A stretch of 64,000 nucleotides of DNA from Escherichia phage vB_EcoM_WFC, in the sequence record NC_048195.1. One strand, given 5' to 3'. A program made the translations under genes and the position numbers. Within the stretch, counting starts at the first letter, position 1. Every line of letters starts with the position of its first letter. Below, piece after piece: positions 3,256-64,000 of the stretch. Below the pieces are notes generated by a model. The model was not told where the DNA came from. It made no database searches and saw only the letters and a program-made list of their open reading frames with translations.

Positions 3256-3375
3256 CGTCCCTATCTCGATGCGCTTCTCCGCGAAAACTCCTTTATCCTT
3301 CCCTTCGTCGTCGCATAATCTTCGTCGAGATGCGCCTTAGTTCGCATAACAGGTATTACGTTAAATGGAGAACAT

Positions 3376-3448
3376 CGCGTAAGTCGTTGTTTTATATAGA
3401 CACCTATATCGGACCGTTAGCGAGGGTCGCGTAAGTCGTTGTTTTATA
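3376..3448. repeat. 21-bp direct repeat CGCGTAAGTCGTTGTTTTATA x2
   Basis: Identical copies read at 3376-3396 and 3428-3448 in noncoding region. Confidence 0.6.
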
Positions 3449-3573
3449 AAGGCGCAAAACTTTCCCTTCGTTCCGAACTAAAACGAGGAATATGCCGACC
3501 CTTCGCCCGAAAATAGTACGCATGCGATATTACCGACATCTAGAATAATCCCTCCCGATATTATTACGCGCTC

Positions 3574-4469: not shown

Positions 4470-4706
4470 TCAACGTTCATCAATCGATACCAATTGTGCA
4501 GGGTCGCCGGATACAGTTGCGCCGATGATACCCATCTGAGAGAAAAATTCTGAATAAACTTCCTTCCAGTACTTGCGCGCAGCTTTCTGGGCTTGACCTT
4601 TTCGCTTGTAGCTTTTACCTTGGAAGATGAAACGGTCGTTTGCCGCGTTATATTCCACCACACCTTCCAGCCATTGTAAGAATGCTACTGATTCATTTTG
4701 ATTCAT
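4470..4706 (-). CDS. Hypothetical protein (78 aa)
   Basis: ATG at 4706 preceded by GAGG RBS. Confidence 0.5.
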   Translation of the reverse strand: MNQNESVAFLQWLEGVVEYNAANDRFIFQGKSYKRKGQAQKAARKYWKEVYSEFFSQMGIIGATVSGDPAQLVSIDER

Positions 4707-4713
4707 GTTAACC

Positions 4714-5181
4714 TCAATATTTTAATAAGAAAGCACCCAACCAACTTTCCTCAATCTCGCGGCCAGTAGCCACACGGTCGGTCTTGGCTATGGGTCTGGA
4801 TTCGCCGCAGGGCAATCCGTCCTGTAGTTGTGTACTATTGCCAATTCTCACCAGAACCTTTCCATCAGGGTCGATATAAGCGCGACAACCCATGATTTCG
4901 AGTCGTTGTAGACACTGGCGAATCGTTTTCAGCTTCTCACCGGACCGGATAGAGCGCGGTCGCGACCGCTGACCGTTCTTATTCACTGTACGCTTGAAGA
5001 CCGGAATATCATTGGTGCGTTGCGGCTTGGGTCGGTAATAAGCCTCTTCGCCAGGAGTCGCACCTGGCGTCAATTCGCGCTTGAGCGCCTTTTCAATATC
5101 AATGATCATAATTATGCCGCAGCAGCGTGAATTATTGCGTAAACAATTCCTAACAGGGCGACAACGCAAATCGTGCCCCAA
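4714..5181 (-). CDS. Hypothetical basic protein
   Basis: Track ORF; real start may be internal ATG at 5109; start uncertain. Confidence 0.4.
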   Translation of the reverse strand: MGHDLRCRPVRNCLRNNSRCCGIIMIIDIEKALKRELTPGATPGEEAYYRPKPQRTNDIPVFKRTVNKNGQRSRPRSIRSGEKLKTIRQCLQRLEIMGCRAYIDPDGKVLVRIGNSTQLQDGLPCGESRPIAKTDRVATGREIEESWLGAFLLKY

Positions 5182-61468: not shown

Positions 61469-61963
61469 ATGATCATCCATCGCCCTTTAATGTTAAAGAA
61501 AGAAGAGTGTGAAGAAATCTTACACGCATTGAGACGTGCAGAAGCAGATGTTAACCTTCGAATAAAGGTAAGAGACTTCATTATGAAGCAGTTCGAAAAT
61601 GATGATGTTGACTATGCCATTGATGAATTGCTGAATCGCAACGTCAAAGGCGCAACAAGACCCATTTGCCATCAATCACGTTGCGCAAGAGTCCCTATTC
61701 AAAATTATGTTCATAAAAAGCCGCGCCTTAAACCTGTTCCGGCTGATAAAATAGAAGTCGGTGATGTTATCGTCTGCGTCTATTACGGCAGTCAGATTTT
61801 CAATGCCGTTGTGGTAAGGCGATACAGCATAAACGGTTGCCAATACATGGAAGTGACAAACGCAAAGAAAGAACCTGGCAGCTTGAACGTGGCTTACGCA
61901 TTAAGGGAATTCAGCAGTCCTTCTTGCATTCTTTATAAGGTACTCGACCATGGCTCATGTTAA
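61469..61963 (+). CDS. Hypothetical protein (164 aa)
   Basis: ORF; C-terminal half has VGDVIV... pattern shared with neighbours. Confidence 0.45.
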   Translation: MIIHRPLMLKKEECEEILHALRRAEADVNLRIKVRDFIMKQFENDDVDYAIDELLNRNVKGATRPICHQSRCARVPIQNYVHKKPRLKPVPADKIEVGDVIVCVYYGSQIFNAVVVRRYSINGCQYMEVTNAKKEPGSLNVAYALREFSSPSCILYKVLDHGSC

Positions 61964-62297
61964 AGACGAAGTGCTGTTTGGCGCAGAGATTAAGAAACGT
62001 GTCAGAGAAATGGCAGGAGAAGAAAGAATGAAGCCGTTGCGAAAAGGTTTTGATCACATCAATGGCGTATCCGGCACGAAGGAGATGGGCGTGTTGGTGA
62101 AAGACATCCGCGTTGGCGATGTCATGGTCATCGACCGACAAGCGCGAGTCGTTATCCAGGTGCAACCTAACGATGATGAAGGATGTGTCCTATTGAAGCT
62201 GAAGAAGCTTTCATCCAGCCCAGCGAAAGCAGTCATCAAGAAGGTGTGGCCTGAAGGATTACGCAAACTCATCCGTCGACCCGTGGAGAATGCATGA
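61950..62297 (+). CDS. Hypothetical protein (115 aa)
   Basis: ORF overlapping upstream gene end. Confidence 0.45.
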   Translation: MAHVKDEVLFGAEIKKRVREMAGEERMKPLRKGFDHINGVSGTKEMGVLVKDIRVGDVMVIDRQARVVIQVQPNDDEGCVLLKLKKLSSSPAKAVIKKVWPEGLRKLIRRPVENA

Positions 62298-62533
62298 TGG
62301 AAGATTATATTAACGCGATGTATATGGCATTCTATGTCGTGCAACTTCCCAATGGCGCGGTATTTTATGGCGAGTATACCTTTGACGTTCAATACGACGT
62401 TTCAGAGCGTACAGTGTTGACAAGGGAGTTGATTGCGGACCTTAAGGACGACATCAAACGCGTCGCGCGGCAGCAGTTCAATTTGGATGACACAGTCATC
62501 GTTCGAATTACCGGAATAACAGAGGTGCAGTGA
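62294..62533 (+). CDS. Hypothetical protein (79 aa)
   Basis: ORF, 4-nt overlap. Confidence 0.4.
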   Translation: MMEDYINAMYMAFYVVQLPNGAVFYGEYTFDVQYDVSERTVLTRELIADLKDDIKRVARQQFNLDDTVIVRITGITEVQ

Positions 62534-62862
62534 TGACCCGTGATCAGATACTCGCCGCGCATGAGCGTGAGAAGGTGAAAGAGATTTGTAAAAGGCACAA
62601 ATCATTTGCTGACTCTTATGTGTTCTTAAAGTCTTGCATCAAACAAAACGCAAGGATGGATAACACTGTATTGACATTCAACCTTTTGTCTAACGGAGCA
62701 AAGCTTGATGCGATATGCGGGTGCAGAATTGCCAGCATGACGTTTGAACGAGGTGCTCACAAAGACTCTTTCTTCTATCAATTCTCCCATCGGACGGGTG
62801 ATACAAAGATAACAAGGACGCGGCACGAGATAGAGATTGACCTGCTCCACTATGTAAAATGA
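62530..62862 (+). CDS. Hypothetical protein (110 aa)
   Basis: ORF, 4-nt overlap. Confidence 0.45.
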   Translation: MMTRDQILAAHEREKVKEICKRHKSFADSYVFLKSCIKQNARMDNTVLTFNLLSNGAKLDAICGCRIASMTFERGAHKDSFFYQFSHRTGDTKITRTRHEIEIDLLHYVK

Positions 62863-62877
62863 ATATCAAAAAGGTGA
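62857..62877. repeat. 21-bp direct repeat AAATGAATATCAAAAAGGTGA (copy 1)
   Basis: Identical to 63070-63090; contains upstream gene stop TGA and AAGGTGA RBS. Confidence 0.65.
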
Positions 62878-62880
62878 TTT

Positions 62881-63075
62881 ATGAGTGTTAAACTAGACAT
62901 ACAGAAAACCCTTGACAAAGCTGCTGCAATAAAGAACTTCATGGATTGTTACGCCAGTTGCACGCTTTATGGAAGCGTTCCAAACGGTGATGTGAGACCG
63001 GAAAGCATGCTTGAGTGGCTTGTTGAGCACCGTTACATAATCGACATAGTTGATGAATACATAAAGCAGAAATGA
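62881..63075 (+). CDS. Hypothetical small protein (64 aa) flanked by 21-bp direct repeats
   Basis: ORF bounded on both sides by the identical 21-mer. Confidence 0.4.
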   Translation: MSVKLDIQKTLDKAAAIKNFMDCYASCTLYGSVPNGDVRPESMLEWLVEHRYIIDIVDEYIKQK

Positions 63076-63090
63076 ATATCAAAAAGGTGA
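63070..63090. repeat. 21-bp direct repeat AAATGAATATCAAAAAGGTGA (copy 2)
   Basis: Identical to 62857-62877. Confidence 0.65.
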
Positions 63091-63160
63091 GCTAAATGCT
63101 TGCCTTTTCTTTTATCAATACTTATACTCTTTTCATCAAGACGAACAAGTGAGGTGAATT

Positions 63161-63478
63161 ATGATTTACTTAGGAATGGACGAAGATGCGCACAAAGACC
63201 TTTCAAGGGTGCCAAACGTTAAGTTAGACACAGCTGTACACATCAAGCCTTGGCCAATCGCCCACCCTGACGTAGTTGTACCAGTCGCGCCTGGCACGCG
63301 TTACGTGGCCATTGATGACGACGGAGTAATTCACTGTTATTCGGAAAAACCAAAGTATATAAAGCAATATCACGGTTGGTTTTTGGACGAGCGTGCAATG
63401 GCGCGTTACTGCGGCGAAGTCGGTCTGGAAGGTTGGAGCTTCAAGGCTAGTGAATCGTGTGTCGAGGTGCAATTATGA
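63161..63478 (+). CDS. Hypothetical protein (105 aa)
   Basis: ORF after GGTGA RBS. Confidence 0.45.
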   Translation: MIYLGMDEDAHKDLSRVPNVKLDTAVHIKPWPIAHPDVVVPVAPGTRYVAIDDDGVIHCYSEKPKYIKQYHGWFLDERAMARYCGEVGLEGWSFKASESCVEVQL

Positions 63479-63693
63479 ATGCCGCGCTGGGTAAGTTGTC
63501 TTTCAATAAACGCAACGAGCTGCGCATGGTGTCGCGCTTTCAACAAACGTATTCATCACTAATAAAGATTACAAATAAGGCCGACTCTAGAGCTTGCCCT
63601 AAAGAAGAATGGGAAGCATTGAACGAGCGTCGTAAACAATTACAACATGCTGCATTCAAGCTGCAGCAATATGCTATGGAGTATGCAAAATGA
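63457..63693 (+). CDS. Hypothetical protein (78 aa)
   Basis: ORF overlapping neighbours. Confidence 0.4.
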   Translation: MCRGAIMNAALGKLSFNKRNELRMVSRFQQTYSSLIKITNKADSRACPKEEWEALNERRKQLQHAAFKLQQYAMEYAK

Positions 63694-63974
63694 AGATGCA
63701 AAGATGTCCCCATTGCTTGTCCACGATGCGGCTTACTGCTGAAGAATATTTACATCACGTTAACGTTTGTGAGGCTAATCCTGAAAACTCGACGCGTTAC
63801 TATTATCATTATCACGCAGAAGCGGAAGATGGATCAGGCGCAACAGGCATCGTCACCACTAAAGAAATGGTGATAACTAAAAAGGCATATGAAAGCTTGC
63901 TGGAGACGATTAAAGAAGTTTCTGGCAAAGAAATCACCTGTATTAAATCTTTATCTTTCTTGCACGAGGTATAA
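63690..63974 (+). CDS. Small Cys-containing protein (MKMQRCPHC...), paralog of truncated ORF at 63977
   Basis: 94 aa; next ORF at window end begins MRMKRCPY. Confidence 0.45.
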   Translation: MKMQRCPHCLSTMRLTAEEYLHHVNVCEANPENSTRYYYHYHAEAEDGSGATGIVTTKEMVITKKAYESLLETIKEVSGKEITCIKSLSFLHEV

Positions 63975-64000
63975 AATGAGAATGAAGCGTTGCCCTTACT

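Follow-up and report, generated by a model that had tools for sequence, protein, structure and literature searches.

Downstream of the primase gene of Escherichia phage vB_EcoM_WFC (record NC_048195.1) lies a run of small open reading frames (ORFs) on the plus strand, among which an identical 21-bp direct repeat brackets a small gene, here called g64 (62881-63075, +). All coordinates, unless a relative is named, are those of the 64,000-nucleotide stretch of the record that was analysed, hereafter the window. The repeat, AAATGAATATCAAAAAGGTGA, occurs in two exact plus-strand copies in the 64 kb, R-left (62857-62877) and R-right (63070-63090), as an earlier note on this DNA had reported, and the ORF between them does encode the 64 amino acids (aa) described there. 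A repeat search of the window returned the 21-mer as a two-copy family, 100% identical at a spacing of 213 bp, and no further copy was found in the window even when up to 3 mismatches were allowed. Chance is ruled out as the source of the pair, given an expectation of 0.02 matches and the fact that 0/100 shuffled sequences gave two or more. A generic ribosome-binding site (RBS) context, conserved at many gene junctions, is likewise ruled out by the restriction of the motif to these two places in the window within 3 mismatches. One extra exact 21-mer was found in IMG/VR (L006); it lies in a helicase-like gene of an AT-rich phage unrelated to this one and is a coding coincidence.

The genes around the repeats belong to a group of related phages. 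Megablast of 62300-63700 recovered 27 phage records at 82-91% identity, all of them Wifcevirus-type myoviruses of E. coli or Shigella with genomes of 66-72 kb; coordinates in one of the relatives, SP13, agree with those of the window to within one base. Upstream lies g78 (62294-62533, +), a conserved small gene recognised from the ORF list and from the annotation of relatives, whose TGA stop overlaps the ATG of g110 (62533-62862, +). The latter is a Wifcevirus-specific gene of 109 or 110 aa, present in 27/27 Wifcevirus records at 70.6-100% aa identity, and its last codon and stop (AAATGA) are situated in R-left. No Pfam or PHROG match was obtained for g78, g110 or g64. On the far side of R-right, beyond a composite regulatory element, the first gene is g105 (63161-63478, +), which has its own RBS and belongs to PHROG 1972, a family of unknown function.

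The two copies of the repeat are identical in letters and differ in what they do. R-left consists of the terminal Lys codon and TGA stop of g110 (stop at 62860-62862), the spacer ATATCAAA and AAGGTGA, of which GGTGA forms the Shine-Dalgarno sequence (SD) of g64 (GGTGA-TTT-ATG), 3 nt before the ATG at 62881; the same GGTGA-N3-ATG spacing is found at g105. In its own context R-left forms no hairpin (dG -6.0, z -0.94). R-right comprises the end of g64 (Lys codon and TGA, the latter at 63073-63075), the spacer and the first 9 nt of a terminator stem, such that its last 9 nt, AAAAGGTGA, open the hairpin. The ends of the repeat therefore coincide with a stop context (AAATGA) and with an SD/stem motif (AAGGTGA). 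The sole ORF that R-right could serve as an RBS, one of 18 aa (63097-63153), is frame-broken in SP13, F13 and Bas99 and was rejected as a real gene, and g105 has its own GAGGTGA-ATT-ATG. Since R-left does not fold and the 18-aa ORF is broken, R-right is best described as a stop plus half a terminator stem. Thus, of the proposal that each copy supplies both an upstream stop and a downstream RBS, the stops hold for both copies and the RBS for R-left only. The records of Bas98 and Bas99 annotate 30-aa coding sequences over the same terminator/promoter intergenic region in differing frames (L016 4553-4645; L025 4560-4652), and these, together with the 18-aa ORF of the window, are probably annotation artefacts in a regulatory region.

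Among other genomes, SP13, F13 and L031 carry an A-to-G change (ATATC to ATGTC) in their left 21-mer and L034 carries it in its right one; the A-run within the 21-mer varies from 3 to 6 A. The occurrence of one variant in both copies could reflect exchange between them or a mutational hotspot, and is a small hint of exchange.

The regulatory element into which R-right runs is a terminator-like hairpin, AAAAGGTGAGC-TAAAT-GCTTGCCTTTT, followed by a T-rich tail (63082-63116, +; stem-loop 63082-63108, with an 11-pair stem). Its folding energy (dG) is -14.2 kcal/mol (z -4.1), 0/200 shuffled sequences were as stable, and the record of phage WFH annotates a terminator at this site. A sigma-70-like promoter, TTGCCT-N17-TATACT (63100-63128, +), matches the consensus at 9/12 positions, and its -35 box overlaps the 3′ arm of the hairpin. 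In ~30 genomes five positions of the spacer vary, against none in the stem or in either hexamer. Hairpin and promoter together are a predicted composite element resembling the promoter-early stem-loops (PeSLs) of T4-type phages. The window, which ends 4-8 kb short of the genome end, holds this one element; a second, homologous element lies ~1.5 kb downstream, past the window end, in all relatives examined, and has TCAAAAAGGTGAGCTAAATGCTTGCCTTTT, the TATACT box and TTCATCAAG in common with the first. In relatives element 2 reads TTCAAAAAGGTGAGCTAAATGCTTGCCTTTTTATTTGCCTGTATTATACTTAGTTCATCAAGCAAAGGAG... (e.g. L016 6108-6200). Insertions beside it (254 bp in Bas101; 1451 bp in RCIP0319, with the leader GGTGAGGTAAAT-ATG) carry partial copies of the element ends.

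Comparison with relatives, which the earlier note had suggested as a check for variants without the enclosed gene, revealed that the slot exists in three forms: g110 only (state A), g110-R-g64-R (state B) and g64 only (state C). State B is that of the window, Bas100, SP13 and F13, with 344-347 bp between the end of g110 and the start of g105 (347 bp in the window). State A was found in Bas98, FEC19, WFH, ECML-117, kaset, AV128, Mansfield, Bas99, Bas101 and RCIP0319, as well as in EC150, CWP003 and three IMG/VR contigs. A base-by-base check of 16 genomes established that state A is shorter by exactly one unit of 213 bp and has one 21-mer left (...CACTATGTAAAATGAATATCAAAAAGGTGAGCTAAATGC...). This presence/absence unit is TTT plus g64 plus R-right (62878-63090, +), or equally 62857-63069, because the register is ambiguous within the repeat. 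The state A junction measures 132-134 bp in most sequences and 385 bp in EC150 and CWP003, which owe the extra length to a separate gene of 251 bp at the g105 start codon. By tblastn against INPHARED, g64 is present in only 3/27 Wifcevirus records and missing from 24/27, and exact-protein look-ups together with a metagenome pattern scan added ~7 more independent state-B genomes, for a total of ~10 distinct genomes from independent assemblies.

State C is represented by L029 and L036 (1265-1700), in which g64 follows straight after g78, the TGA of g78 overlaps the g64 ATG, and both g110 and R-left are absent. The junction is CAGTGATGAGTGTT (...GAGGTGCAGTGATGAGTGTT...), and state C equals state B minus the DNA from the ATGA of g110 to the ATGA of g64, an ATGA microhomology. 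The g78 copies of L029 and L036 are the most divergent ones (83-86% nucleotide identity). State B as a simple recombinant of A and C was considered and rejected, as its GGTGA-TTT-ATGAGTG could be built from A (GGTGA/GCT) and C (GGTGCAGTG/ATGAGTG) only with added filler bases.

An empty site that is shorter by exactly one repeat unit is what a cassette moved by recombination between the repeats should leave, and bears out that part of the earlier proposal. We consider it likely that the repeats mark the two ends of a cassette of 213 bp with a single gene, placed where a transcription unit ends, between the g110 stop and the conserved terminator/promoter element. The earlier note had also allowed for duplication. 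A tandem duplication of the 213-bp segment followed by divergence, which would make g64 the diverged 3′ part of g110, fits the head-to-tail geometry and the equal spacing; however, the two 213-bp units are dissimilar outside the 21-mer, the g110 and g64 proteins are unrelated (best BLASTP E = 0.58), and g64 has homologues of its own in other phages. The unit and protein comparisons refute paralogy of the two genes, and we give this explanation next to no chance.

Alternatively, the 21-mer may be a functional cis-element, a stop plus SD acting in coupling or as a regulatory site, that is kept by selection, its association with the indel being secondary. Both copies are nearly invariant while third positions of g64 differ by up to ~20%, and the sequence does offer a stop codon and a good SD. 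Against this, the motif occurs only twice in 64 kb, no other gene junction carrying it within 3 mismatches; it is not credible that 21 identical bases arose independently; the empty allele is shorter by precisely one unit; and the SD-like part of R-right lies in the terminator stem, where it serves no conserved ORF. We therefore regard selection on a cis-element as a very unlikely origin of the pair, compared with the boundaries of a cassette.

The cargo of this cassette, g64 (product WFC_00091 of phage vB_EcoM_WFC in the protein collection), encodes a protein that is identical in the window, Bas100, SP13 and F13. At the nucleotide level the window differs from Bas100 at 11 positions and from SP13 at 13, all of them synonymous. 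Among 14 copies, nine of which were retrieved by exact-protein look-up and the others from INPHARED genomes and L038, all 24 segregating sites (24/24) are third-codon positions. This pattern argues that g64 is a real functional gene under purifying selection. Homologues were identified in Kagunavirus ST20 and L027 (83% aa and 71% nucleotide identity for L027) and in Yersinia phage P400 (41% aa). The Kagunavirus and P400 homologues have the length and stop position of g64 and are without the 21-mer; given this colinearity with the Kagunavirus homologues, AAATGA is plausibly the native end of the gene. In each phage group no other gene stands between the homologue and the intrinsic terminator that follows it. 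In Kagunavirus (L027 1440-1830; L040 350-690) that terminator lies upstream of the terminase genes, and in Kagunavirus HSE2 the slot of the homologue is occupied by a small ORF that is unrelated to it and carries no annotation; the sequences become homologous again at the start-codon overlap and at the terminator hairpin.

An exhaustive HMMER search with g64 recovered only 12 representative relatives, all unnamed small proteins or repeats, that have the motif F..CY..C.LWGS.PDGD...W in common, and a search of 5.8 billion proteins returned two clusters. The AlphaFold model of g64 has three helices (pLDDT, the predicted local distance difference test score, 77), and Foldseek of this model against PDB and BFVD gave nothing below E = 4. 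The g64 product belongs to a small, horizontally distributed family of phage proteins and is a conserved, strongly constrained accessory protein in three phage groups.

The cassette lies in a region where gene content is generally fluid. An all-against-all comparison of 16 Wifcevirus early regions identified at least 10 gene-sized presence/absence polymorphisms in ~9 kb. Many of the indel junctions fall at an RBS or start codon with overlapping alignments, that is, direct repeats, of ~6-21 bp where perfect and up to 33 bp where imperfect. A 302-bp unit of SP13 has a 14-bp perfect repeat (TATGAGTACCGAAG), a 278-bp unit of CWP003 a 15-bp repeat with one mismatch (GGAGAATG[C/T]ATAATG), and the 254-bp unit of Bas101 a 27-bp repeat that imperfectly copies the 3′ end of element 2. 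The 251-bp gene of EC150 and CWP003, encoding 83 aa, is inserted exactly at the g105 start codon (window 63148-63163) and is bracketed by an imperfect repeat of 13-18 bp that copies the 3′ end of element 1, GAGGTGAATTATG / GAGGTGTGATT[A/G]TG (insert loci: L026 1115-1363 for EC150; L014 ~4649-4900 for CWP003). A 286-bp unit (window 63690-63974) that varies among relatives has a 33-bp imperfect repeat across two paralogous N-termini. The 94-aa ORF located there (MKMQRCPHC...) and the next ORF (MRMKRCPYC..., start 63977) are apparent tandem paralogues with a Cys-rich N-terminus (63690-64000). The 481-bp gene at 61469-61963 (164 aa), absent from kaset, WFH and CWP003, has zero junction homology (gaggtt/gaccatgg); this indel, in the same region, is not repeat-bounded. 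The 21-mer is thus the longest perfect example of a common pattern, and the suggestion that such repeats take part in early-gene shuffling is borne out by the short direct repeats found at RBS/start junctions of other gene-sized indels.

Other repeated motifs were observed at the opposite end of the window. The sequence ATTTGCACTAT occurs five times, all on the plus strand, within 1.5 kb at 336-1820, and 5 matches to AATTTGCACTATAAAA with at most 3 mismatches were counted against 1.3 expected; lying near the genome end, these motifs might serve as promoters or as a packaging/replication element. In addition, TCGCGTAAGTCGTTGTTTTATA[T/A]AG occurs twice, 52 bp apart (3375-3451), and TATA[C/A]T..TTTATATCGAGA.GGG twice, 400 bp apart (2447-2870).

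A direct duplication around an insert, a precise empty site and a gene family that recurs in unrelated phage genera might also be expected of an enzymatically mobile element (a transposon, homing element or integron-like cassette) carrying g64, with the repeats as its target-site duplication. However, g64 is all that the 192-bp insert encodes; Pfam, PHROG and fold searches gave it no nuclease, transposase or integrase signature, and the sequence shows no terminal inverted repeats. A duplication of 21 bp is far above typical transposase target duplications. Moreover, the homologues in Kagunavirus and P400 occur without the 21-mer, and the repeats of neighbouring cassettes vary in length and sequence, as from homology-driven joints. 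We judge a mobile element to be extremely unlikely here.

How old the polymorphism is, and in which direction it arose, was addressed with neighbour-joining trees, built for g110, g64 and each of the two flanks, in which A and B are fully interspersed. Either recombinational spread or recurrent events must therefore have occurred. The gene g64 is found with both deep allele classes of g110 (75.8% nucleotide identity between classes) and of g105 (72%), and g64 copies are at least 92.8% identical to one another. The divergence of g110 is an internal patch (62561-62800, 62-75% nucleotide identity to Bas100 and Bas98) with flanks of at least 95%, so that the mosaic boundaries lie inside g110 and not at the repeat. 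Third-position diversity is 0.123 in g64, 0.08-0.10 in g78 and 0.22-0.25 in g105. As the diversity of g64 matches that of neighbouring core genes, g64 is no recent arrival and the polymorphism is old, of the same age as the diversity that was sampled.

If the repeats do delimit a cassette, states A and B would interconvert by recombination between the two copies. Passage from B to A would proceed by replication slippage or short-homology recombination, and from A to B by integration of an excised circle or by unequal exchange; homologous recombination in the conserved flanks could then carry either allele between co-infecting phages. In the founding event, g64 was most likely joined before the terminator via two short homologies of a sort present in any gene of this region, one between its Lys-stop (AAATGA) and the end of g110, the other between its SD (AGGTGA) and the 5′ arm of the terminator stem. 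In the recipient the left joint would lie downstream of the right joint, and because of this crossed order the intervening 21 bp would be duplicated. Such an origin would predict a donor carrying AGGTGATTTATGAGTG. As a result, g64 would be translated from a copy of what was originally half a terminator stem, and would share the transcript of the g110 operon as its final gene, ahead of the resident terminator.

Several points weigh against this account. No donor with g64 and the leader AGGTGATTTATG was found by tblastn against phages, in the search of 5.8 billion proteins, in look-ups of gene context or in pattern scans of IMG/VR and JGI metagenomes; apart from distant homologues, the searches for a donor or full element met with no arrangement but states A, B and C, and so the crossed-microhomology origin is one that we infer. 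A repeat of 21 bp is at the lower edge of the length used by homologous recombination systems, and no recombinase is annotated in the inspected part of Bas100 (30-49 kb), in itself an uninformative result. Excision, circles and the activity of promoter and terminator are predictions from sequence, and the result of dN = 0 (no non-synonymous change) for g64 is biased by the nine copies that came via exact-protein look-up. Lastly, B could just as well be ancestral, with state A derived from it by deletion more than once. The change from B to A (deletion between the 21-bp repeats) and that from B to C (deletion from ATGA to ATGA) are each an exact single step, although some event must have produced the duplication in the first place. 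The precise empty site supports the cassette proposed earlier, and the trees and diversity favour neither gain nor loss.

The resemblance of the repeat to the regulatory elements raises another history for its left copy. R-left may be the remnant of a full second element, g64 having once been flanked by complete PeSL-like elements and moved in or out by recombination between them; an internal AGGTGA...AGGTGA deletion, from the stem to the RBS of the element, would have removed the left terminator and promoter and fused g64 to the g110 operon. Two homologous composite elements do exist per genome, the element-like part of the repeat (TCAAAAAGGTGA) is also present in element 2, and the insertions of Bas101 and of EC150/CWP003 beside elements duplicate an element 3′ end. 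Element 2 moreover ends in GAGGTGATTATGAGT, one T off the g64 leader GGTGATTTATGAGT, a likeness that is weak evidence because GAGGTGA-N3/4-ATG is the usual RBS of the phage. However, no full element was found upstream of g64 in ~12 state-B loci or in pattern scans, and two steps are required where one suffices. We consider a remnant element unlikely, and return to the cassette with short repeats as its boundaries.

A more far-reaching version of the cassette, which is possible but doubtful, is that the terminator/promoter elements are built-in gene-capture sites in Wifcevirus. The 5′ half of the hairpin (AAGGTGAGCTAAATG) would be a latent SD and start and the 3′ end an RBS, so that an ORF joined at either end through short-homology recombination would be expressed at once and a partial duplicate of the element would be left as a footprint. 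Candidate footprints would be R-left, the 24-27-bp duplicate at element 2 in Bas101 and the 13-18-bp one at element 1 in EC150 and CWP003, with GGTGAGGTAAAT-ATG in RCIP0319 as a further possibility. If true, the PeSL concept, with circles as vehicles, would extend to an unrelated and very fast-replicating myovirus lineage.

The closest known parallel to the cassette is found in the PeSL cassettes of T4-type phages, in which composite promoter/stem-loop elements border an ORFan on both sides, one such element takes its place in a close relative, and excision circles have been demonstrated (Arbiol et al. 2010, PMC2839356; Comeau et al. 2014, PMC4122927; circles in PMC2839356). The likeness extends to a small ORFan in a hyperplastic region made up of small genes that are not essential, bracketed by direct repeats with one copy in a relative (compare ORFan192 of RB49 with phi1), and to the implied excision or insertion by recombination between repeats. 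Moreover, the composite found here, a terminator stem-loop that runs into the -35 box of a sigma-70-like promoter, corresponds to one PeSL subclass. The differences are nevertheless considerable. The repeat here is 21 bp, a stop plus 9 nt of stem, and no whole promoter-terminator unit; R-left has no loop, 3′ arm or promoter, and the cassette is not flanked on both sides by complete elements. Because its left boundary is without a promoter or complete hairpin, the cassette is not a bona fide PeSL unit and not transcriptionally autonomous; it would instead borrow the transcript of the upstream operon and use the duplicated stem arm as an SD. Two full elements were seen per genome, as against dozens in T4-likes, and the phage lineage is Wifcevirus, related to Pbunavirus.

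Deletions between short direct repeats are well known from T4 rII and the T7 early region, and arise by slipped-strand or RecA-independent events in E. coli. As in the B to A change, the intervening DNA is lost and one copy is left, with repeats of ~5-25 bp at spacings of hundreds of bp. Those deletions, however, are laboratory mutants at chance repeats, whereas here the repeat would itself stem from gene insertion, and the alleles are natural, old and both maintained. The morons of lambdoid phages (Juhala/Hendrix) have their own promoter and terminator. Like a moron, g64 is an extra accessory gene between conserved genes and is absent from relatives. It differs in having no promoter or terminator of its own, in that 3 nt separate R-left from its ATG, and in that the resident terminator is also present in the empty allele. 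The sole plus-strand promoter match for g64, TAGAGA-N18-TAAAAT (62831-62860), in the g110 end and R-left, is no better than those in shuffled sequence. Transposon target-site duplications and integron attC cassettes are similar in the direct repeat around the insert and the precise empty site. Here, by contrast, transposase, integrase, attC and terminal inverted repeats are all absent, and the ends of the duplication are a stop and an SD motif.

Judged by title and abstract, none of the ten Wifcevirus papers considered concerns this locus, in a genus that is of interest for therapy and was brought into the laboratory only recently. Set beside the systems above, the locus is a clean, ordinary example, in a new phage genus, of known modular gene gain and loss, and reveals no new mechanism. 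Its value lies in being a natural case of gain or loss of a single accessory gene resolved to the base pair, with three alleles sampled many times over and an unambiguous junction. The 213-bp unit with its perfect 21-bp repeats offers a simple, tractable model locus for rates of short-homology deletion and insertion and for excised circles. Taken together with the surrounding indels, it shows that shuffling of the kind seen in T4-like hyperplastic regions also operates in Wifcevirus.

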